This document shows, in pieces, positions 1-9,438 of a DNA stretch of 64,000 nucleotides. The notes below the pieces were generated by a model that worked only from the letters and a program-made list of their open reading frames with translations, made no database searches and was not told the DNA's origin. Source of the stretch: a phage; the sequence record PZ496581.1. One strand, written 5' to 3'. Positions within the stretch are counted from its first letter, which is position 1; every line of letters starts with the position of its first letter. The position numbers were made by a program, and so were the translations under genes.

Positions 1-231
1 CCAGTTACTAATATATCCACGGTCTAATAGATAAATCTTAGTAGGGTCTAAATAATTCAACATCGTTTCGAAACAGCCAACTTCATTTCGAGACTTAACA
101 TCGAAACGTCCATCAACTGTTCGTTTAGGGAAATCAATCTTTACATATCTTTCACTAATTTCCATTATGTCATTAATGAAAGTTGTTTTACCAGCATTAT
201 CCGGGCCATCTACTAAAATAATTTTAGCCAT
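1..231 (-). CDS. P-loop kinase-like protein, N-terminal 77 aa only (gene runs past window start)
   Basis: ATG at 229-231 (minus); translation MAKIILVDGPDNAGKTT has a Walker A motif; start overlaps stop of upstream gene. Confidence 0.55.
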   Translation of the reverse strand, partial: MAKIILVDGPDNAGKTTFINDIMEISERYVKIDFPKRTVDGRFDVKSRNEVGCFETMLNYLDPTKIYLLDRGYISNW

Positions 232-232
232 T

Positions 233-1132
233 TTATTCCTCGATTACGACATCTTCGTATTTAGGTATATTATACGGTGAAGAAATTAAAGCATTAAAGT
301 AGATGAACTCACCAAGACCTGGATGGAATACTTCTTCAGGATTTTCGAAATATTGAATCTTCGGACGTCCTTTAAGAATTTGATAGTACTCAGTTTTAGT
401 TGGTTTAAAAATTCGAATCAACGCTTCTTCAGGATACTTATTTCTGTCGAAGCTATTATTTGGATCGGTTATATAAAGCGGTTGACCTAATTGAATTGCA
501 CATTCAACCACTTGTTCAAAACGATAGCACGGGTCACTAATTCGAAATGGATGAAAAATACCATCTAGATGAATAGGAGCCAAATCACCTACAAGACGCT
601 GCATGATGGAAGGACGTATAACTTTCTGGGTTATGATAATCTTATTACCATCGGCACCAGCGTTAACCAGCACTTCTTTTTGACGTTCATTCAACACAGT
701 AGTTTGAAGTGAACGATTAACCGACAACATATCGGTTTTTAAGAATTCGTCAATATAAAAACGTGGTTTATTAGGGTCTGCAGTGATATTGAAATTGAAT
801 TCCACATCAAAAGCGCCGTCATATCCGGTGATATCTGTGATTAGAAAATCACAATCATAATAAGCAATTAATGAATCAACCACAAATTCATTTTCAGACC
901 AGAAATATTTACGAGTGTTATACGCGTTATCTTTATACCATAATGGAACAAACTTAAATTCTGGAAAAAGACGTTCGCATTCTTTAATATCAGATGCATT
1001 ACGTGGATATGTAATCACATCACCCGGATTAGCACGGTGCAAATGAAGTTGGAAGTTGCCATCCTTAAGGATAGCATACTGTCCAGTTTCATAAGACCGC
1101 ATACTCAAAATAGGTACGCGGAAAATAGCCAT
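233..1132 (-). CDS. hypothetical enzyme, 299 aa; candidate sugar transferase of the modification cassette
   Basis: ORF with ATG at 1132 overlapping stop of the gene 42-like ORF; no motif recognised. Confidence 0.55.
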   Translation of the reverse strand: MAIFRVPILSMRSYETGQYAILKDGNFQLHLHRANPGDVITYPRNASDIKECERLFPEFKFVPLWYKDNAYNTRKYFWSENEFVVDSLIAYYDCDFLITDITGYDGAFDVEFNFNITADPNKPRFYIDEFLKTDMLSVNRSLQTTVLNERQKEVLVNAGADGNKIIITQKVIRPSIMQRLVGDLAPIHLDGIFHPFRISDPCYRFEQVVECAIQLGQPLYITDPNNSFDRNKYPEEALIRIFKPTKTEYYQILKGRPKIQYFENPEEVFHPGLGEFIYFNALISSPYNIPKYEDVVIEE

Positions 1133-1848
1133 TAGTCAAGGAATCCTTTAACATAATCAAAATCACGTTCAAACACATGGGCACTTACCATGGTATGAGT
1201 ATAATCACCAACTTCTACACCACATTCGTTAGCGATATAATGAAGTAATTTTCCTTGGAGATAAAAATCCAACTGCATAACAACAGCACAGTTCTGAGAA
1301 CGCATATGACAGTGGGTATAAAGCTTACCATCACGAATATAATAAGTCACTGAGTCAGTACATGGATATTCAAGCGTTTCGTCTGAATCAAGCAAAGCCT
1401 GATCAGAACTTTCTAGAATTTGGAACACAACTCTTCGAGAGTTAGGCTTCTCTTTAAGTTCTTTTAGAAGAGCTGGTAATTGGGCCGCAATGCGAGGACC
1501 ATAGAAAGTGTTGAAGTTCGCCGGCAAAACATCTGATTTTGGTTTAGAAATAAATTTAGCGACATTAGGATATGCCTTAAACGCTTCTTCTGCGTTGGTA
1601 CCACCAGAAATCATAAACTTCCAGAAGTCTTCGGCATATTCATAAGAGATGCGGTTAATACGTGGGTCGGTCATTTTGAATGATGATGGAGTGTCAACAA
1701 CTACTGTCATAGACCCAATTTCATTACAACGTCCAATACGAGAATCAGTTACGAATTCCGGGTTTTCTAAAATTTCACGATTGACTGCTTTAAATGCGGT
1801 TTGAAAATCTGCGGCTTTGATATATTTCATTGTGTTATGTTTTCCCAT
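1132..1848 (-). CDS. 42: dCMP hydroxymethylase-like (thymidylate synthase fold), 238 aa
   Basis: ATG at 1848 with GAGG SD; PCTDSVTYYIRD...MRSQNCAVV resembles the T4 gp42/TS active-site region (recalled). Confidence 0.75.
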   Translation of the reverse strand: MGKHNTMKYIKAADFQTAFKAVNREILENPEFVTDSRIGRCNEIGSMTVVVDTPSSFKMTDPRINRISYEYAEDFWKFMISGGTNAEEAFKAYPNVAKFISKPKSDVLPANFNTFYGPRIAAQLPALLKELKEKPNSRRVVFQILESSDQALLDSDETLEYPCTDSVTYYIRDGKLYTHCHMRSQNCAVVMQLDFYLQGKLLHYIANECGVEVGDYTHTMVSAHVFERDFDYVKGFLD

Positions 1849-1890
1849 GTTTACCTCAATACAATTTATTATATACTCAATTCGTAAAGC

Positions 1891-2130
1891 TTATTTGAAT
1901 TTCTTGACAATGTTGATATAACGTAAAGCTTCAGCATCGATACTTCCAAGAACACTATGAAGAAATGCATCAGCGTAGTATTCCAATTGAACAGGTTCTT
2001 TAATCACTTTAGCCGCTTTAGTTTCAAACAGGCCCATCAGGGCCTGTTTAAGAATTTGTTCATTAGTGTTCAGTTTCATAGTCAAAATCTCTTCATTAAG
2101 TTGGTGGTTAAAAGTTTTTCTAGAAATCAT
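1891..2130 (-). CDS. hypothetical protein, 79 aa
   Basis: ORF track; start overlaps stop of upstream gene. Confidence 0.45.
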   Translation of the reverse strand: MISRKTFNHQLNEEILTMKLNTNEQILKQALMGLFETKAAKVIKEPVQLEYYADAFLHSVLGSIDAEALRYINIVKKFK

Positions 2131-3287
2131 TCCGGGTACCTCAAAGCGTCATCAGAGTTAGTTATATCAATAATAGATATAGAGTTTTCTGCTAACCCGT
2201 TTTTAGATAATTGACGTTTATAATATCTTTCACAATATGTACACGTCGTCCCGCAGATTTCATTAGCACAATCGAAATCTGGATGTCTGAACCACCTTTT
2301 TTCTAAAAAGCCATCTAACAAAGAGGTTTCAATATTTACTGTATGTGAAAACTCAGTTTCGTTTTCAAGAGTGAAAATAGTCTCTAAAGGCTTCCACAGT
2401 TCTAACAAATTACCTTCAAACTTTTCAGAAGCGTATGCTTCAAGAACTTTCAAAATGTAGTCTGTGCTACCTGTACGTCCTGAAACTTTGAATTGAGTGA
2501 TACCAATATCATTATAAAGTTTCAAATCTTGAGGACGAACAAAACGAGTTCTCAACCAGTTAAATGGGTCTGTATCACGAGCTTTAATACAGTGCTGCAT
2601 AGGATATCCGTTTAAGGATTTAGCATCATCAGCTGTAACATCAGTACTATGGAAAATATAGCAAGAGTCACGATAGCTACAATGTGTTGTATACCCTTTA
2701 CCAGCATTAGAACAGAACTCATTTACAAGAACTTCAAATATTATATTGTTCTTATTGCAAAACTCTGCTGCACGCTTCAGGAAAGAAACTGAACGGTTCT
2801 TATGAATTCCACAGCAGACCTTTTTGATATTATATTGGTCATGCAAGTATTTGATTTGAGTTACAGCATCGACATGTAGAATTGTTGAAACTTCAATCTC
2901 AATGTCTTTATTGACTTCACGAACAATTTCCATAACAACAGGGTTAGCGATAGTAATACGCCATACGCCTATTGACCAAAGATACTGAACATAATCCTGA
3001 ATAGCTTTCTTCTTCCACTCAACTAGTTCTCTTTTTGAACCAGGATTTATCGTGTTGAGTGTATAGTTAAAGCAAATACCTAATTCGTTACAACGTTTAA
3101 CGTAATCTTCTAACATCTTTTTGTCAACGTCAGGAAGCCTAAAATCAGGTCTGGCTGCTACAAAAGCCATTTCTCTTGTAGAGCCGTATACTTCATTTAT
3201 CAAGCTATTAGGATAAGTTTTATTGAGCTCTACGATTTTATCAAGAAGAGCTAAATCAAAATTCGTTCCGATTTTAAAAGTATTCAT
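2127..3287 (-). CDS. Cys-rich enzyme of unknown function, 386 aa (C-terminal CX4CX3CX2C cluster)
   Basis: ATG at 3287; long ORF inside the sugar cassette; metal-binding-like Cys cluster CANEICGTTCTYC. Confidence 0.6.
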   Translation of the reverse strand: MNTFKIGTNFDLALLDKIVELNKTYPNSLINEVYGSTREMAFVAARPDFRLPDVDKKMLEDYVKRCNELGICFNYTLNTINPGSKRELVEWKKKAIQDYVQYLWSIGVWRITIANPVVMEIVREVNKDIEIEVSTILHVDAVTQIKYLHDQYNIKKVCCGIHKNRSVSFLKRAAEFCNKNNIIFEVLVNEFCSNAGKGYTTHCSYRDSCYIFHSTDVTADDAKSLNGYPMQHCIKARDTDPFNWLRTRFVRPQDLKLYNDIGITQFKVSGRTGSTDYILKVLEAYASEKFEGNLLELWKPLETIFTLENETEFSHTVNIETSLLDGFLEKRWFRHPDFDCANEICGTTCTYCERYYKRQLSKNGLAENSISIIDITNSDDALRYPE

Positions 3288-3347
3288 TTTTTTTGCATCT
3301 CGCGTTAATTGATGTGATGGTTTTTTTTGCAGGTCTTACTTAAATTA

Positions 3348-3734
3348 TTATAGATTCGGTTTATATGATTTAAATGTTTCGAATTCGCCTTTATTCATAA
3401 GAGCTTTGAATTCGTCAGGACGCATAGCTTTGTCGTCGATAATCCAATCATATACTGGTTTATGTGTTAGCAAATTATGGTACTTCAAACCAATGTTTTC
3501 CAAGTTCTGAATCAGACTTGGGAGAATGTCAATTGCTATACGACCAGGACCTACTGACTTCATACCACGAGCAGTGTAAAGCGTTATGGTATGCCCTGCA
3601 TCATACAGGGCATTAATGGCAGACACCATTTCGACGTCTGGTTTGAAGTTCACGTAATCACGATTGTTATTCCATTCCGTGATGCAATCATCGACATCAA
3701 AACAAAGATTAAGCATGTTTTCTACACGGTGCAT
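3348..3734 (-). CDS. HAD-superfamily phosphatase, about 128 aa
   Basis: FDVDDC (motif I), TLYTARG (II), HKP (III), WIIDDK (IV); ATG at 3734 overlaps upstream stop (TAATG). Confidence 0.7.
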   Translation of the reverse strand: MHRVENMLNLCFDVDDCITEWNNNRDYVNFKPDVEMVSAINALYDAGHTITLYTARGMKSVGPGRIAIDILPSLIQNLENIGLKYHNLLTHKPVYDWIIDDKAMRPDEFKALMNKGEFETFKSYKPNL

Positions 3735-5419
3735 TAGATTCGTTCCCATTGATGAGTGATATCGCCACCGATTGGACGATAGGAAACACCAGTTTCTTTA
3801 TCAGTTAGTACCCATTTACCAGGATTTTTTGTAATCAGAGTAGCCGTTACAGGTTCTGCTACGTCATAACTAATAGAGCCGTCCTGAAGTACACGGCCCA
3901 TGTTACGTAATTGCTTAGTCAGAAGTTCCATACCTTTATAATATGCGGCTACCGCTTTAAGTGGATTATTCTTGAAATAACCACCTAATGCAATCCAGAT
4001 AATTGCCACTGCCAAATGATGATACTCGTTAAACGAACTCATCTTTCCATATTTGTAAACTAATGGATTGATGTTAATAGTCACATTACAAGTTGTTTCA
4101 TCAATAGTAAACTGTCCCCAGGTCGGATTAGCATTGAATTCATCATAACCTGAAACAGCATAAAGCACTTTAGCTTCATCATACAATTTTGGCCCGTAAA
4201 TCTTGGTTTCGCCAAAATATCCACGAGGGTCGATAAACTTGACTTCGCCGTTATCAGTAATCATAGTATTACTGAAGTTCGGGTCACCATGAATAACAGA
4301 GTACTGTCCCTGAGAACGGTTATGATAACGAATAAGATGTTCTAAAGCTTGTTTCAACATTGGCTTCAGACGTCCAATCTTAGTGTAGTTCACATGTGTG
4401 ATTTTACCAAATGAATCAATCAATGGTTGAATGCTTTCACAACGATCAATAACTTTCGTATAGAATTCTTTAGTGAAATCACGACGAACAGTTTCAGGAC
4501 TTACAAAATAAGTGTCTGTGCTGAATTTCAGTGCATCTAAAATTGCATCAACAATTTGTGGACGAGCAAGACTTGATTTGGATTTAATATATTCAAATGC
4601 TGGCTTACCTTTAATGCGTTCCATTTCAAAGTTATTTTCATTAACAGAAACTAACTGAGGAACTGAATCTGATTTCACTTTAAGATACCACGAAATCTCA
4701 TCTTTCTGAAGAGCTCGTCCCTGTTCGGTTAATGCGAATTTAGTTACAGTTTCTTCACCAATTTCAACTGCATTAAAACTACGATTAAGTTCACGAACTT
4801 CATGAGCTTTTTCAAGTTTAGGCATATCACCTAAATCAATTAGATTCATAAGCTCTGATTTATTGAATGCGCTGGCGTAAAGGAATTCTACGAAATCACG
4901 TCCTTTGCAGTATTCATGAATTTCTTCATCAGTAGAACCCATATAGAATTCCCAGTCTTTGAACTGATAAATTCCTACAACATTACCACCTGTTGAACCT
5001 ACGTTAGTGATATTTTCACCGTCGAAATTATATCGACATTCGTCACCCTTAACATAGATTGCGTTAACATTCCAAGACCATGAACCAAAATCAGGAATAA
5101 TATCACACCAGTTAACAATTACATTATGGCCGTCTAAATCTTTGTGTAATTTAGCAAGAGCATAAGCAGAACCATACGCTTCATCAACTGTACGAATAGT
5201 CACATTGAACCCTTCTTGCTCACAATAAGCTCGAACAGTTTCAGCAAATTTTGAATGAACTACTACAATAATTTCATCTGCGCCAAGGTCAGAATAAATT
5301 GTATACAAATTGCTCAGAATAGTGTCTTGTTTATAATTCACAAGAACTTTTGGAATATGATGCGTTATTGGATACAAACGAGTTGCCAGTCCAGCACCAA
5401 GAATAACAGCTTTTTTCAT
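3734..5419 (-). CDS. bifunctional sugar-1-phosphate nucleotidyltransferase (N-term) / APH-type sugar kinase (C-term), 561 aa
   Basis: N-term ILGAGLATRLYPIT matches the RmlA/GlmU-type GxGTRL motif; C-term IHGDPNFSN...FIDPRG matches the Brenner kinase motif; ATG 5419 with GAGGA SD. Confidence 0.85.
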   Translation of the reverse strand: MKKAVILGAGLATRLYPITHHIPKVLVNYKQDTILSNLYTIYSDLGADEIIVVVHSKFAETVRAYCEQEGFNVTIRTVDEAYGSAYALAKLHKDLDGHNVIVNWCDIIPDFGSWSWNVNAIYVKGDECRYNFDGENITNVGSTGGNVVGIYQFKDWEFYMGSTDEEIHEYCKGRDFVEFLYASAFNKSELMNLIDLGDMPKLEKAHEVRELNRSFNAVEIGEETVTKFALTEQGRALQKDEISWYLKVKSDSVPQLVSVNENNFEMERIKGKPAFEYIKSKSSLARPQIVDAILDALKFSTDTYFVSPETVRRDFTKEFYTKVIDRCESIQPLIDSFGKITHVNYTKIGRLKPMLKQALEHLIRYHNRSQGQYSVIHGDPNFSNTMITDNGEVKFIDPRGYFGETKIYGPKLYDEAKVLYAVSGYDEFNANPTWGQFTIDETTCNVTININPLVYKYGKMSSFNEYHHLAVAIIWIALGGYFKNNPLKAVAAYYKGMELLTKQLRNMGRVLQDGSISYDVAEPVTATLITKNPGKWVLTDKETGVSYRPIGGDITHQWERI

Positions 5420-5460
5420 GTTGAAGTCCTCATTGGTAAGTAGGAGTATTGTACACTATT

Positions 5461-5604
5461 CTAGTTAAAGCATTCATACTTTGCTTGTAGTCCAATCATA
5501 ATCCATCCAATTACAAGTGTTGGAATCATTACCGGAGCCGTTAAGCTCCAGTAGATAGTCATGACAAGCATCAATAGTAAAAGTCCTATTGTTATTGCTT
5601 TCAT
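5461..5604 (-). CDS. small hydrophobic membrane protein, 46 aa (below ORF-track cutoff)
   Basis: Own translation MKAITIGLLLLMLVMTIYWSLTAPVMIPTLVIGWIMIGLQAKYECFN; ATGA overlap with SIS gene stop. Confidence 0.4.
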   Translation of the reverse strand: MKAITIGLLLLMLVMTIYWSLTAPVMIPTLVIGWIMIGLQAKYECFN

Positions 5605-6236
5605 TGTTCGCCTCGTAACATGGCACCTAGTGCACCGCCTGGATGGAACTTAAGGAAATCATTAGAGGTAAATCCACGTTCAGACGAAAGGTTGATAGCA
5701 AACGTATCGATAAGTGCTAACAACAATGTAGTGGACATCGTCGGAGCTAAAGAGTTCTCGTCAACTTCTACCGCGATACCGGTGCAGAACGTATAATCAA
5801 AAAGAGCTTCGTATTCTTGTGGAATGTCAGGGTTACAATGTAACAGAATCTGTTTAACCTGAGGACGAATCATACGAAGATGTTTAGCAACACCTATCAT
5901 TTCTTCAGTCTTACCAGAACGACTGATGTGAACTAATACATCATTAGGTGCAATAAATCCTGCGTCACCATGAGAATAATGCCCGGTGTTCAAATACATG
6001 CTAGGAATACCTAGTGAAGCAAAAGTCTCGGAAGCTTTAGTTGCGATATTAGCATTCTTACCAACACCTGTAATAATTACCCGGCTTTCATAATTACTAA
6101 GTCCAGGGCGTCGAAGAGTTTCTAGAATAGCATTATAACGAGCAGGGTTTTGACTAATTACTTTAGCCATAGTGGCAAGAGATGAAGCTTGTTTTACGAT
6201 TGCGTCAATAGCGATAGTAATAGGAGTAGTTTTCAT
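5601..6236 (-). CDS. SIS-domain sugar-phosphate isomerase (KdsD/GutQ-like arabinose-5-phosphate isomerase candidate), 211 aa
   Basis: ITGVGKNANIATKASETFASLGIPS...HGD...ISRSGKTEE matches the SIS phosphosugar-binding pattern. Confidence 0.8.
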   Translation of the reverse strand: MKTTPITIAIDAIVKQASSLATMAKVISQNPARYNAILETLRRPGLSNYESRVIITGVGKNANIATKASETFASLGIPSMYLNTGHYSHGDAGFIAPNDVLVHISRSGKTEEMIGVAKHLRMIRPQVKQILLHCNPDIPQEYEALFDYTFCTGIAVEVDENSLAPTMSTTLLLALIDTFAINLSSERGFTSNDFLKFHPGGALGAMLRGEQ

Positions 6237-6276
6237 ATTTCTCTCATTTAATTAGTTGGCCGTCCTTGGCATTATA

Positions 6277-8988
6277 TCAAAAATCAAACATATCGAACAG
6301 AGATGCTTTCTTCTCGTAATCGAGTTTAGCTGCTGATGTGAATCCTTCAAGTGGTTTAATAAATGTCTTCTCAAGGAGAACAGTGTAGTCCATCCAATGA
6401 AGTACATCGTCTTTAATTAAATCTGTGATTTCAGTACCAGAAGGCCATGCGATACATTTATCACCGAATGGGTTTCCTTCACGTAAAGGCAGAACATATA
6501 CTTTTTCACCTTCTACAACTTGCGGTGCATCGATATTACCTTTGATAGCCCGGTTATACGTCAGAATTCCACGAATATGGAACGGGCATTTGGGACCAGG
6601 GAATCCACCGACGTCATATTTAGCAATGTTATTCGCAGAAGATACCGACGCGATGCTAATATAATTCAACTGACGGAATTCTTTTTCAAACTCTTTAAAA
6701 TATTCTTGTAATGATTCTTCACCTTCCTGAAGCATACGACGAATACATTCCTTAAGAGCTTTCTGTACTGCTTTAGGAGTCGAAGATTTCTGTGTTTCGA
6801 GACCCATGATTTTAAGCTTAGGTTCAGCGTATCTGGTTCCTTCCATATCCCATACATTCAAGGCATAACGTTTCTTACCTGTCCAAAATCCGCCAATACC
6901 TTTAGAACCAAGCGGAGGCCCAGCGATAGCTTCTCGGTCCATGAACATTAAGTGTTGTTTATTGTTCATGTATTCACACATTTCACGGAAACCTCTATCA
7001 ATAGCTGGTTCCATACGTTCACGTGCAAACTTATCTAAGAAGTCTACCCAATGGTTGGTATCACGGAATTTAGATTCACCAACCTTATCGATAATTTTAT
7101 CGGCAGATACGTAAATAGAGTCTGTATCACCATAAAGAACGAAAGCTTCACCTTCTGTACCACAAACTTCATTCAGATATTCATTAACTTTACGTTCAAT
7201 CCACTGTAAAGCCATTTGTCCGAATGTTGTGATTGCAGTAGCATTACGCAAATCATAATAACGGAACCAAACGTTTCCAAGTGCACCATAAAGTGAGTTG
7301 ATGAGCAATTTACGGTTAATTTGTGCAGTCATACCTGCAACTTCAGTACGTTGAGCTCTAAACAACATTTCATTAAGAGATTTAGCAGACAACTTTTTAA
7401 TCTTTTCTTTAATCTCATCGCTGAAGTCGAAACGATAATCAACATCTAATGGTTCGTCAACAGAAAGATTAGGATTATGCAATGCCTCTTTAATTATTTC
7501 ACCATTACGTTGAGCTGCAAGCATGTAACCTTTATGTTCTTTACGTTGATTAAAGACCTTAGTGATTTCAGTTGGAACTACACCATCACGGTCTTTATAA
7601 TACATCATGCCGTTAGGAGAACAACTGTACACATCTGAAGGACGTTCAGCGATTGCGTTAATATAATCATGCAATGGAGCTACTTTAAACGTTCCTGCTA
7701 TTGTTTCCGGGCTAATATTCACTTGGCGAATAATACTTGGATACAGAGATGTAAGGTCGAAACTCATTACATATTTGTATCGATTTGGAATAGGTTCCTT
7801 AACAAAAGCGCCAGGATAAGGTTGAACCGGGTGAGAACGACCTTGTGGAATCACCTTGTTCTGTTCTTTAAGGCTATTAAAAATAATAGCATCCCATGTT
7901 TTAATTGGGCCAAACACAGATTGAATCTGTATCTTAGCATAATAACCCATGTCCAAACTCAAGTTGATGAACTGACGCTTAGCATCAATTTGCAATACAC
8001 GATACACATCGATAATGTTATAAGAAATATATCGTTGGTGATTGCTTTCACGAAGTTTAGAAATAGGGCCGTCATATTTCAGTTTACCAACGTTCAATTC
8101 AAATTCTGAAATGTAATCCAGAGAATACGATGGTTGATTGGTAAAAGAGAATTTTTTGTAAAGGTCAATGTAATCAAGAACAGAGATACCGAACAATGTA
8201 ATGATTTCACGAGAACCATACATGTTTTCGATAACTTTAACACGAGTTTTACGATGTGGTGATAAACGTTTCGCAGTAGATTCGCCAAAAATATTCTTGA
8301 TTCGGTTATACACATATGGAATATCGAATGACTCAACGTTCCATCCAGTCAAAATGACAGGAGTTTTCTGTTGCCAGAAGTTGAGATATTCCATCAACAA
8401 TTCTTTTTCGTTATCGAACGGTATATAAATGATTTTATCGATAATTTCGGATGGAACTTCATCACCACCTTGTTCTTGAAGCTTAGCCGCAATTTCGATA
8501 GACCATTCTTCTACATTACCATACGGAGAATTCAATAGATCAAATACGTAGAACCTGTCGTCAATTGAGTCATAATGGGTGATAGCATCAATCGGATGTT
8601 TTGCTTGTGATGGCTCAGGGAACCCATCCGGAGATGTTACTTCGATGTCGAAGTTAGCCACACGAATTTTTGTATGGTCGTATTTGATTTCATAGTTATA
8701 AGTGTCAGACAAATACGCCAATTTGAAATCGTCCATACCAAGTGCTTCAAGTCCGATATCTTCCATGCGTTTAATCCATTGGGAGGCATCACGCATATTA
8801 GCGAACAACTTACGAGTACACGGCTTACCGTAGATATCGAAATATTTCGTAGCCTGACTTTCTGGACAATGAGCAAACAGTGATGGTTTATATTCTACTT
8901 CACGAGTACGTTCACGGCCATTAGAATCGATGTAACGTTCAAAAATTGAATCACCAATCTGTTCAACCGTTAAGTAAAATTCTTTCAT
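6277..8988 (-). CDS. 43: DNA polymerase gp43 (family B), 903 aa
   Basis: Near-identity to T4/RB69 gp43 as recalled; exo motifs FDIE, NIIDV; YGDTDS polymerase motif. Confidence 0.97.
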   Translation of the reverse strand: MKEFYLTVEQIGDSIFERYIDSNGRERTREVEYKPSLFAHCPESQATKYFDIYGKPCTRKLFANMRDASQWIKRMEDIGLEALGMDDFKLAYLSDTYNYEIKYDHTKIRVANFDIEVTSPDGFPEPSQAKHPIDAITHYDSIDDRFYVFDLLNSPYGNVEEWSIEIAAKLQEQGGDEVPSEIIDKIIYIPFDNEKELLMEYLNFWQQKTPVILTGWNVESFDIPYVYNRIKNIFGESTAKRLSPHRKTRVKVIENMYGSREIITLFGISVLDYIDLYKKFSFTNQPSYSLDYISEFELNVGKLKYDGPISKLRESNHQRYISYNIIDVYRVLQIDAKRQFINLSLDMGYYAKIQIQSVFGPIKTWDAIIFNSLKEQNKVIPQGRSHPVQPYPGAFVKEPIPNRYKYVMSFDLTSLYPSIIRQVNISPETIAGTFKVAPLHDYINAIAERPSDVYSCSPNGMMYYKDRDGVVPTEITKVFNQRKEHKGYMLAAQRNGEIIKEALHNPNLSVDEPLDVDYRFDFSDEIKEKIKKLSAKSLNEMLFRAQRTEVAGMTAQINRKLLINSLYGALGNVWFRYYDLRNATAITTFGQMALQWIERKVNEYLNEVCGTEGEAFVLYGDTDSIYVSADKIIDKVGESKFRDTNHWVDFLDKFARERMEPAIDRGFREMCEYMNNKQHLMFMDREAIAGPPLGSKGIGGFWTGKKRYALNVWDMEGTRYAEPKLKIMGLETQKSSTPKAVQKALKECIRRMLQEGEESLQEYFKEFEKEFRQLNYISIASVSSANNIAKYDVGGFPGPKCPFHIRGILTYNRAIKGNIDAPQVVEGEKVYVLPLREGNPFGDKCIAWPSGTEITDLIKDDVLHWMDYTVLLEKTFIKPLEGFTSAAKLDYEKKASLFDMFDF

Positions 8989-9016
8989 TTAATTTCCTTT
9001 AGACGAGTTATTGTCT
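8989..9016 (-). promoter_or_regulatory. candidate gene 43 translational operator (hairpin AGAC-8 nt loop-GTCT plus SD AAAGGA)
   Basis: Hairpin and SD directly 5' of gene 43 ATG; T4-family gp43 autoregulates through such an operator. Confidence 0.4.
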
Positions 9017-9035
9017 TTTGTTTGTTGATGAACTT

Positions 9036-9063
9036 ATTATACTCCAAATGGGACCGAAGTCCC
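9036..9063 (-). promoter_or_regulatory. -10 TATAAT plus GGGAC-UUCG-GUCCC hairpin between regA and gene 43
   Basis: Minus-strand TATAAT at 9036-9041; tetraloop hairpin 9050-9063. Confidence 0.4.
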
Positions 9064-9069
9064 ATTGCT

Positions 9070-9438
9070 TTAATTACCAATTGTATATTTTGCTTTCAAA
9101 GTCCAGTCATCTTTCTGTTTAAAAGAGATAACACGGAAGTTATTAGTCAGGCCAAACAGATCTTCACGAGCAGAGTCTTCAATAACAATCAAGCCCCAGT
9201 CTTCAAGCAACTGAGCAATCGAATCACGTCGCTGATAGTCTTCACCATCAATATCAACCTGACGTCCGTCCATACGCAGCATTTCTTTAAAGTGGACGAT
9301 GTAATATTTACCTTGCTTTTGGAGGATATGACAGGACTGATAAAGAACTTTATCCTTGTTATTAGCGATGCCCATACGGGTCAGAGTCTCTTTGACTTTC
9401 AGAAAATCTTCGGGGTTCTTCAATTTAATTTCGATCAT
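9070..9438 (-). CDS. regA: translational repressor RegA, 122 aa
   Basis: MIEIKLKNPEDFLKVKETLTRMGIANNKDKVLYQSCHILQK matches T4 RegA as recalled; start trimmed to MIEI. Confidence 0.9.
   Translation of the reverse strand: MIEIKLKNPEDFLKVKETLTRMGIANNKDKVLYQSCHILQKQGKYYIVHFKEMLRMDGRQVDIDGEDYQRRDSIAQLLEDWGLIVIEDSAREDLFGLTNNFRVISFKQKDDWTLKAKYTIGN

Follow-up and report, generated by a model that had tools for sequence, protein, structure and literature searches.

Arabinosyl-5hoC is present in RB69 DNA (PMC13326640), and LC–MS detected 5-ara-dC and 5-ara-ara-dC in the DNA of NicPhage (PMC13390438). The sugar on RB69, DLP3 and NicPhage DNA is a 132-Da pentose, assigned by NMR as D-Araf (PMC13326640, PMC13390438). 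RB69 ORF053c/052c was recognised in 2018 as one fused gene of 561 aa and 63.9 kDa, tied to UDP-arabinose (PMC6024577). Its product, gp52:53, is equated with AfhE of phage HY126 in PMC13326640. Citing He et al. [quoted passage not shown] The isomerase of the pathway is reported to be structurally closest to KdsD-type isomerases (PMC13326640). The route as given there is de novo and has four steps, of which the fused enzyme carries out the second and the fourth, with a separate HAD phosphatase acting between them.

The window analysed here, a 64,000-nucleotide stretch of phage DNA (PZ496581.1), is a Mosigvirus (RB69-like) genome, with DNA identity of 97.9–99.3% to the records listed. A 561-aa ORF and its TAA stop form a complete gene at 3734..5419 on the minus strand, a strand assignment absent from the original prediction; the plus-strand reading of this interval was rejected, as it contains many stop codons. 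After removal of the known extra C of the RB69 record, the protein is identical to RB69 ORF53_52c (gp52:53) at 558/561 residues, and the three substitutions (H92Y, A182G and Q233H) spare the conserved catalytic positions. At the DNA level the gene is 97.7% identical to that of RB69, with a single indel that corresponds to the known RB69 sequencing error. The proteins of phages moha and F27 are 100% identical to the 561-aa protein, and the NicPhage homologue is 99.3% identical.

The RB69 identity and the match to phrog_4098 over residues 1–561 (E 3e-295) mark 3734..5419 as the orthologue of RB69 ORF53_52c/gp52:53 and AfhE, and full-length homology, two-domain layout and gene cluster all place the protein in that family. 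RB69 gp52:53, HY126 AfhE and DLP3 gp82 share with it the family, the domains, the neighbouring genes and the inferred product, UDP-D-arabinofuranose. The E. coli-phage homologues fall into two groups, at ~99% and ~42% identity to the 561-aa protein, so that the identity of HY126 AfhE would be either ~99% or ~42%; HY126 has an entry in the NCBI taxonomy, and the 60 best-matching phage records do not include its genome. The gene is present in 342–374 phage records (342 with a strong full-length match), and the family comprises at least 482 matching protein clusters (50% identity). With the RB69 fusion in print since 2018 (PMC6024577), the fusion and its phage context are not unusual, contrary to the original prediction.

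Taken together, the gene very probably encodes a bifunctional enzyme of the UDP-D-arabinofuranose pathway, the orthologue of RB69 gp52:53 and AfhE, serving the arabinosylation of 5-hydroxycytosine in the phage DNA. The story has been published (2018, 2025 and 2026), and the gene therefore brings no new biology.

Two-domain architecture of the 561-aa protein

AlphaFold modelling of the full-length protein gave two domains (pLDDT 94.5, pTM 0.91), which bears out the proposal that one polypeptide joins a nucleotidyltransferase N-terminus to a C-terminus of APH/choline-kinase fold, as do the motifs, the Pfam match and the structure matches. The N-terminal domain (~aa 1–205, 4805..5419, minus strand) is a sugar-1-phosphate nucleotidyltransferase of GT-A/Rossmann-like fold and RmlA/MurU/HddC/LicC type. 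It passes the Pfam NTP_transferase profile PF00483 (39.1 bits, cutoff 21.2), and its nearest solved relatives are HddC (5xhw, E 6e-12) and LicC (1jyk) by profile search against the PDB, and RmlA (6b5e) and MurU (4y7u) by Foldseek (E ~3e-8). The domain has the G-x-G-x-R signature, a catalytic Lys and the Asp residues that bind Mg: within the nucleotide-binding signature ILGAGLATRLYPIT (aa 6–19, 5363..5404, minus strand), G10 and R14 do not vary across 64 homologues, and the other invariant residues of the domain are P23-K24, D106, D195-x-G197-D198 and K201. These solved relatives use GTP, CTP, dTTP or UTP, and the choice of UTP is not legible from the sequence.

In public records the gene is mostly labelled 'hypothetical protein' or 'GlmU'. 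The GlmU label was rejected: the NCBIfam glmU profile scores 22.1 bits against a cutoff of 366.85 and matches only the N-terminal ~100 aa, and the C-terminal half adopts a kinase fold, as opposed to the left-handed beta-helix acetyltransferase domain of GlmU.

Full-length Foldseek returned only N-terminal-domain matches among its top 50, and the C-terminal domain was therefore modelled on its own. This domain (~aa 210–510, 3890..4792, minus strand) has the features of an APH/choline-kinase (protein-kinase-like) fold: it is bilobal, with a beta3 Lys, an alphaC Glu, an HxDxxxxN loop and a DxG-type Mg site. Its invariant residues are K227, E241, H377-G-D379, N384 and D397-P-R-G400. In the catalytic loop (Brenner motif) HGDPNFSN (aa 377–384, 4268..4291, minus strand), the H, G, D and N are invariant, giant-virus fusions included, and D-P-R-G is invariant in the Mg-binding motif IDPRG (aa 396–400, 4220..4234, minus strand), the counterpart of the kinase DFG motif. 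The Pfam APH profile PF01636 scores 14.4 bits on the 561-aa protein, below its cutoff of 23.2, and the kinase half reaches no Pfam kinase-family cutoff. Homologue P0167 passes the APH profile at 47.9 bits, as do ~10 others by precomputed Pfam assignments. Profile searches of the kinase half against the PDB gave marginal matches only, to spectinomycin phosphotransferase (E 0.017) and RIO2 (E 0.026). Across 64–70 homologues, with identity as low as 30%, the catalytic residues of both halves are invariant. The C-terminal tail (aa 511–561, 3737..3889, minus strand) consists of short beta strands (pLDDT 83–90); it is retained in homologues from T4-like phages and missing in the giant-virus, cyanophage and Vibrio-phage forms.

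The same pair of folds occurs in other pathways. AmgK and MurU act in MurNAc/GlcNAc recycling in Pseudomonas, and NahK, MtnK and maltokinase are further anomeric sugar kinases of APH fold; structures from this group were matched in the structural searches, MurU being one of the best for the N-terminal domain. AmgK and MurU share both folds and both chemistries with the 561-aa protein, namely phosphorylation of an anomeric OH followed by conversion of the sugar-1-phosphate to a nucleotide sugar, but they are separate proteins that act consecutively on a free sugar, with identities to the 561-aa protein of 8–17%. LicC and LicA belong to the CDP-choline pathway and are fused as LicCA in Treponema; their substrate is an amino alcohol, their genomic context differs, and the 561-aa protein lacks the choline-kinase motif.

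A role like that of LicC/LicA (choline to CDP-choline) or AmgK/MurU (MurNAc or GlcNAc to a UDP-sugar), in envelope decoration or recycling, is given almost no weight. For choline, no Pfam Choline_kinase match appears even at E<=1, and the Mg-binding Asp is followed by DPRGYFG in place of the choline-kinase D-x-E-Y. For MurU, the NCBIfam profile gives 24.8, far short of its cutoff of 250. Identities to the LicC/LicA and AmgK/MurU structures are 9–21%, and a SIS isomerase, a HAD phosphatase, DNA-modification genes or glycan genes invariably accompany the gene. Arabinose, moreover, is what near-identical phages carry on their DNA (PMC13326640, PMC13390438).

Kinase and pyrophosphorylase are also joined in one polypeptide, as in the 561-aa protein, in Fkp and enzymes like it, which fit the salvage logic of the original prediction; these carry a GHMP-family kinase and act on free sugars in consecutive steps, and the 561-aa protein has no GHMP match in Pfam. 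Fkp of Bacteroides is an L-fucokinase/GDP-fucose pyrophosphorylase, and the Leishmania and plant enzymes are arabino/fucokinase-pyrophosphorylases.

Gene cluster and proposed pathway

The gene lies in a conserved cluster ordered SIS isomerase, small ORF, 561-aa gene, HAD phosphatase, U32 protein, ThyA-like 5-hydroxy-dCMP synthase and glycosyltransferase, all on the minus strand. Each gene has its RB69 counterpart in the corresponding place, from gp46:47 to gp55 and gp43, and the same cluster occurs in Acinetobacter phage DLP3 (57% identity) and Klebsiella phage kv_tblp5. The SIS-domain sugar-phosphate isomerase (5601..6236), orthologous to RB69 gp55, matches Pfam SIS and phrog_5670 'arabinose 5-phosphate isomerase' (E 2e-116) and is syntenic in RB69 and DLP3; it is predicted to convert ribulose-5-P to D-arabinose-5-P and so to supply the kinase substrate. 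The small hydrophobic ORF of 47 aa (5461..5604), the RB69 gp54 counterpart, matches phrog_3610 over its full length (E 7e-27), and its start codon and the SIS stop codon overlap in the tetranucleotide ATGA. Downstream of the 561-aa gene, the small HAD phosphatase of 128 aa (3348..3734) is the orthologue of RB69 gp51 and AfhF by phrog_1238, the RB69 annotation and the motifs FDVDDCIT, TAR and K..IIDDK, and its start codon shares the sequence TAATG with the stop codon of the 561-aa gene. It is predicted to be an Ara-1,5-P2 5-phosphatase, following the role given in PMC13326640. Such overlapping start and stop codons (TAATG, ATGA) point to coupled translation involving the phosphatase and the small ORF.

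Next in the cluster are a Peptidase_U32-family protein orthologous to RB69 gp50 (2127..3287; Pfam PF01136, phrog_5757) and a conserved 79-aa ORF orthologous to RB69 gp49 (1891..2130; phrog_8601). A thymidylate-synthase homologue (1132..1848; Pfam Thymidylat_synt) is the orthologue of RB69 gp48, for which 5-hydroxy-dCMP synthase activity has been demonstrated (PMC13326640), and is predicted to make the acceptor base. Finally, a 299-aa protein (233..1132), orthologous to RB69 gp46:47, is a putative first DNA arabinosyltransferase consuming UDP-arabinose, based on synteny, phrog_3891 and the assignment in PMC13326640; it has no Pfam match. A scan of 1..9200 yielded 31 promoter-like sites, versus 33 expected, and 5 terminator-like sites, versus 4.6 expected.

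Four-step logic of this kind is shared with the ADP-/GDP-heptose pathway, which runs through a SIS isomerase, an anomeric kinase giving a bisphosphate, a HAD phosphatase and a nucleotidyltransferase. The enzymes there are the SIS isomerase GmhA, the kinase/adenylyltransferase HldE or HddA plus HddC, and the HAD phosphatase GmhB. HldE, like the 561-aa protein, fuses kinase and nucleotidyltransferase (steps 2 and 4) and leaves the phosphatase apart. HldE, however, pairs a PfkB ribokinase-like kinase with a cytidylyltransferase-like domain in the reversed order, whereas the 561-aa protein pairs APH-like and RmlA-like domains and has no PfkB or CTP_transf_like match in Pfam or NCBIfam; the substrate is a heptose in one case and a pentose in the other. 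The resemblance to the HldE pathway is a convergence of logic, not family membership.

The cluster would fit an NDP-heptose pathway, with a GmhA-like sedoheptulose-7-P isomerase and a heptose-7-P kinase/heptose-1-P nucleotidyltransferase, in that its logic is identical to that of GmhA-HldE-GmhB, the best solved N-terminal relative by profile is the heptose-1-P guanylyltransferase HddC, and many records carry heptose annotations on the neighbouring genes, with public labels such as 'phosphoheptose isomerase' and 'capsule biosynthesis protein'. The first of these labels, however, is widespread on the HAD phosphatase and is a mis-annotation, because that protein carries DxD/T/K/DD motifs and lacks a SIS domain. 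The SIS protein itself falls in the arabinose 5-phosphate isomerase family phrog_5670, with KdsD-type enzymes reported as nearest structurally (PMC13326640), the 561-aa protein scores 22 with the NCBIfam HddC profile, whose cutoff is 300, and the DNA sugar of RB69, DLP3 and NicPhage is a pentose, D-Araf. A heptose product is thus considered exceedingly improbable.

Within the arabinose pathway, the order of steps bears on the original prediction, which envisaged salvage-type activation of a free sugar in two steps by one enzyme. In such a route, the HAD phosphatase would release D-arabinose from A5P before phosphorylation at C1 and conversion to UDP-arabinose, so that the fused steps would be consecutive. 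Table 1 of PMC13326640 gives this free-arabinose order for RB69 and DLP3, but its text reports that AfhE makes the 1,5-bisphosphate from Araf5P and that AfhF acts on that bisphosphate. The phosphatase is a capless small HAD, annotated as T4 Pnkp-3'-phosphatase-like and reported as GmhB-like, the class that handles a bisphosphate in the heptose pathway. The invariant basic residues of the kinase half (R213, K322, R326, R399, K417 and K488) may hint faintly at an anionic substrate. We consider the free-sugar order unlikely, and salvage-type activation is probably not what the enzyme performs. The anomeric (C1) kinase assignment agrees with the activity reported for AfhE in PMC13326640, which is on D-arabinofuranose 5-phosphate and has a phosphatase step intervening before UDP-Araf is made.

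From sequence, we infer for the 561-aa protein the same activities as AfhE, together with individual residue roles. In the preferred bisphosphate pathway, the adjacent SIS isomerase would convert host ribulose-5-P to D-arabinose-5-P, with host KdsD/GutQ as a possible extra source. With ATP, the C-terminal APH-fold kinase would then phosphorylate arabinofuranose-5-P at its anomeric C1-OH to form arabinofuranose-1,5-bisphosphate, with predicted roles for K227 and E241 (ATP), D379 (base) and N384 and D397 (Mg). The downstream HAD phosphatase, which is probably translationally coupled, would strip the 5-phosphate, followed by reaction of Ara-1-P with UTP in the N-terminal RmlA/MurU-type domain, via G10, R14, K24, D106 and D195, to yield UDP-Araf and PPi. 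Finally, phage glycosyltransferases would transfer arabinose to 5-hydroxycytosine in the DNA, blocking restriction enzymes.

The gene would thereby supply activated arabinose for 5-hydroxycytosine in RB69-like, Acinetobacter, Serratia, Klebsiella and other T4-like phages, where arabinosylation shields the phage DNA from restriction enzymes and alters sensitivity to defence systems. The practical value lies in annotation, as the 'GlmU'/hypothetical and 'phosphoheptose isomerase' labels can be corrected.

Fusions of the core in other viruses

The kinase/nucleotidyltransferase core is also fused to SIS, HAD or both, in four arrangements, one of them being SIS plus core (P0115). These fusions lend independent Rosetta-stone support to the pathway assignment. 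In the four-domain fusion all four catalytic centres are conserved, and its SIS domain shares 34% identity with the product of the SIS gene at 5601..6236. BLAST of the HAD phosphatase (3348..3734) against the HAD domain of this fusion revealed no significant similarity; the two phosphatase modules belong to different HAD subfamilies and are not orthologues.

The core may not be specific to DNA hypermodification. Giant viruses may make an NDP-arabinofuranose-type sugar from ribulose-5-P, or a related ketose phosphate, in one polypeptide for virion glycans, a proposal that we put forward tentatively, at somewhat less than even likelihood. The giant-virus fusions adjoin genes for NDP-sugar dehydrogenase, epimerase, methyltransferase and glycosyltransferase. 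We found no description of a four-domain fusion in a glycan cluster in the available literature, with He et al. 2026 outside that search. The fusion is the lone lead that may exceed the literature; it gives a hint that eukaryotic viruses may use arabinofuranose-type nucleotide sugars for their glycans.

An alignment-based scan of viral contigs yielded matches, and P0085, a four-domain protein, gave none as the sole query. In contigs of giant viruses (Nucleocytoviricota GVMAG), the core is fused behind HAD and SIS in one protein of ~900–1000 aa. In cyanophage S-SRM01, a SIS-core-HAD triad lies within a large cluster of glycosyltransferase genes, and the 13.5 kb examined there contain no ThyA homologue. 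A HAD-SIS-nucleotidyltransferase-kinase fusion was likewise present in the transcriptome of the slime mould Ceratiomyxa.

The two-domain protein and its identity

The minus-strand ORF at 3734..5419 (ATG at 5419, TAA at 3734-3736) comprises 561 codons, with a GAGGA Shine-Dalgarno sequence 7 nt ahead of its start; the plus-strand frame of this interval contains many stops. All three motifs quoted in the original prediction of a fused sugar-1-phosphate nucleotidyltransferase and anomeric sugar kinase were located in the minus-strand translation: ILGAGLATRLYPIT at aa 6-19, HGDPNFSN at aa 377-384 and IDPRG at aa 396-400. Pfam NTP_transferase matched the N-terminal ~100 residues with 39.1 bits against a cutoff of 21.2, and many NCBIfam sugar-1-phosphate nucleotidyltransferase models matched the N-terminus, each far under its equivalog cutoff. 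In the kinase half no Pfam family rose above threshold, the weak matches (APH, 14.4 versus 23.2; Fructosamin_kin, EcKL, RIO1) being restricted to the region around the catalytic loop, and this half was therefore examined by structure.

AlphaFold, supplied with an alignment of 64 sequences, predicted the full-length structure with very high confidence (pLDDT 94.5, pTM 0.91): an N-terminal alpha/beta domain (~aa 1-205) is followed by a bilobal one (~aa 210-510), and the chain ends in a short, beta-rich tail. Among homologues down to ~30% identity, the invariant columns are G10, R14, P23-K24, D106 and D195-x-G-D198 in the transferase, and K227, E241, H377-G-D379, N384 and D397-P-R-G400 in the kinase. 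Since these are the columns expected of two active enzymes, the domain call is correct, and neither half has the look of a degenerate domain. LicC/LicA-like, MurU/AmgK-like, GlmU and heptose enzymes were considered as alternative identities; none of them passes its membership tests with Pfam and NCBIfam, and none suits the gene context.

At the DNA level the region shares 97.9-99.3% identity with the Mosigvirus (RB69-like, Straboviridae) genomes listed. The protein is encoded without any difference (100% identity) by phages moha and vB_Eco_F27, and in 142 records its identity is 99% or more. The sole indel relative to RB69 is an extra C in the RB69 record, which splits the gene into ORF052c and ORF053c; with this C removed, 558 of the 561 residues are identical. 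Re-sequencing of the RB69 region by Thomas et al. 2018 yielded one 561-residue, 63.9-kDa protein, ORF53_52c; the authors noted its NTP-transferase-like matches and proposed that it acts with the SIS protein ORF055c to make UDP-arabinose (PMC6024577). Lee et al. [quoted passage not shown] The DNA of RB69 and DLP3 carries mono-, di- or tri-arabinofuranosylated 5-hydroxycytosine, not 5-hydroxymethylcytosine (PMC13326640). In NicPhage, whose protein is 99.3% identical, 5-ara-dC and 5-ara-ara-dC were detected by LC-MS (PMC13390438). The finding is already known, and its remaining value lies in annotation: most records label the protein 'hypothetical' or 'GlmU', and its phosphatase partner is called 'phosphoheptose isomerase' in PHROGs (phrog_1238) and many GenBank records, despite its HAD motifs and the lack of a SIS domain.

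Gene neighbourhood and a proposed route to UDP-arabinose

The neighbouring genes all share the minus strand and correspond one for one to those of RB69. Upstream are DNA polymerase gp43 (6277..8988) and a SIS isomerase (5601..6236; phrog 'arabinose 5-phosphate isomerase'). Downstream, a 128-aa HAD phosphatase (3348..3734) with DxD, T, K and DD motifs begins at an ATG that overlaps the stop of the 561-aa gene as TAATG. This ATG at 3734 is the RB69-annotated start; an alternative at 3749 would give 133 aa (MGTNLMH..., 3348..3749) and a 16-nt overlap with the upstream gene. Further on are a Peptidase_U32 protein (2127..3287), a 79-aa ORF (1891..2130), a ThyA homologue (1132..1848) and a putative first arabinosyltransferase (233..1132). 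Promoter and terminator scans gave counts at chance level.

In the best-supported order, the SIS isomerase would convert ribulose-5-P to D-arabinose-5-P, and the C-terminal kinase domain would use ATP to phosphorylate the anomeric OH, forming Araf-1,5-bisphosphate. The HAD enzyme would then remove the 5-phosphate to give Araf-1-P, and the N-terminal domain would combine this with UTP to form UDP-Araf, from which glycosyltransferases would move arabinose onto 5-hydroxycytosine in DNA. The fused enzyme would thus perform the second and fourth steps, with a separate enzyme acting between them. The same logic operates in the GmhA - HldE - GmhB pathway to ADP-heptose, in which kinase and nucleotidyltransferase are also fused; the folds differ, however, and the 561-aa protein works like HldE without belonging to its family. 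The 'salvage' order of the original prediction, with the phosphatase acting first and the kinase on free arabinose, is compatible with the gene content and is still given in Table 1 of PMC13326640, but it is contradicted by the enzymology reported in the text of that article, in which AfhF (RB69 gp51) is described as a Mg-dependent phosphatase converting Ara-1,5-P2 to Ara-1-P. We regard free-sugar salvage as improbable, and probably wrong as originally proposed, and retain the bisphosphate route. The acceptor precursor, 5-hydroxy-dCMP, is made by the ThyA homologue RB69 gp48 (Lee et al. 2026, PMC13326640).

The U32 gene, orthologous to RB69 gp50, separates the arabinose genes from the gene for the 5-hydroxy-dCMP synthase; it is missing from DLP3 and retained in Klebsiella phage kv_tblp5. 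Because C5-hydroxylation of cytidine in rRNA and of uridine in tRNA depends on the U32 proteins RlhA and TrhP, this protein might help to make 5-hydroxycytosine or to raise its level. The protein is given only as a 'sugar or heterocycle reductase' in PMC13326640.

A probable small membrane peptide is also encoded within this soluble sugar-nucleotide operon, by an ORF that follows the SIS gene and precedes the 561-aa gene. This conserved, strongly hydrophobic 47-aa ORF (5461..5604, minus strand; MKAITIGLLLLMLVMTIYWSLTAPVMIPTLVIGWIMIGLQAKYECFN) matches phrog_3610 over its full length, with its ATG and the SIS stop overlapping as ATGA; its RB69 counterpart is annotated as shorter, at 36 aa.

Related clusters in other phages

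The SIS - core - HAD arrangement, the core being the nucleotidyltransferase-kinase pair, also occurs in DLP3, on T4-like contigs in IMG/VR and on a 277-kb jumbo-phage-like contig, where it adjoins a T4-type glucosyltransferase. Cyanophage S-SRM01 carries a contiguous triad (L004, 5411-7823) with a T4 Pnkp-like HAD, surrounded by at least six glycosyltransferases, two nucleotide-sugar epimerases and one methyltransferase. No ThyA homologue was found within the 13.5-kb stretch examined, which suggests that in cyanophages the product of the module goes elsewhere than into cytosine arabinosylation. In kv_tblp5 (L006, 6001-11665), core, HAD, TMK-like kinase, U32, ThyA homologue and putative glycosyltransferase genes adjoin the DNA polymerase gene, with no SIS isomerase annotated in this stretch, consistent with reliance on host isomerases such as KdsD/GutQ, which could supply arabinose-5-P. 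Of the phage homologues, that of Vibrio phage D482 (L005, 5998-7305) diverges most, with 28% identity and a length of 435 aa. It lies among NAD-salvage (nicotinamide phosphoribosyltransferase), radical-SAM and QueC-like genes, and the annotation shows no SIS, HAD or glycosyltransferase partner nearby; its substrate may therefore differ.

The C-terminal ~50-residue beta-rich tail (aa 511-561; 3737..3889, minus strand) is kept in T4-like phage homologues with the consensus TKxPxKWxLxDxETGxxYxP. It is absent from S-SRM01 (508 aa), D482 and giant-virus fusions, where the alignment stops near aa 497, and could serve phages specifically for interaction or oligomerisation.

Family size and larger fusions

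An exhaustive profile search retrieved 482 clusters (50% identity) with E <= 1e-30. The 150 best matches were all family members, most spanning both domains and ~10 being shorter fragments. The fusion is thus a sizeable family and no phage curiosity; together with its recognition in RB69 in 2018 (PMC6024577), this overturns the view of it as unusual. Homologues of ~890-1010 aa carry HAD_2 and SIS domains ahead of the core, and SIS+core, HAD+core and core+HAD arrangements also occur. Compared with the SIS protein of the window, the fused SIS domain shows 34% identity (E 4e-27), and the fused core shows 33% identity to the 561-aa protein over 505 residues (E 3e-79); the HAD module belongs to a subfamily other than that of gp51. 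Across 18 aligned four-domain proteins, none of the four modules varies in its catalytic motifs. Such repeated fusion in differing orders is classical Rosetta-stone evidence for a single pathway made up of the four activities.

The four-domain form (proteins P0085-P0120, P0142-P0177) occurs on contigs named GVMAG (giant-virus MAGs), at 10001-12829 in L002, 10001-12730 in L003, 5998-8787 in L009 and 5983-8667 in L024, and would place the whole four-step pathway in one chain; no description of this form was found in the searchable literature. The isoforms P0093 and P0121-P0124, which make up one cluster, derive from a transcriptome of the slime mould Ceratiomyxa fruticulosa. The two contigs profiled have a GC content of 21-26%. 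Contigs with the gene also encode Bcl-2, Copine/RING, Arf/Ras, collagen, UFD1, DHFR-TS and an RNA-polymerase Rpb3/11 subunit. On the GVMAG contigs its surroundings are of NDP-sugar/glycosyltransferase rather than DNA-modification type, the neighbours of the four-domain gene including UDP-glucose dehydrogenase, FkbM methyltransferase, NDP-sugar epimerase/dehydratase, GT2, GT17 and GT25.
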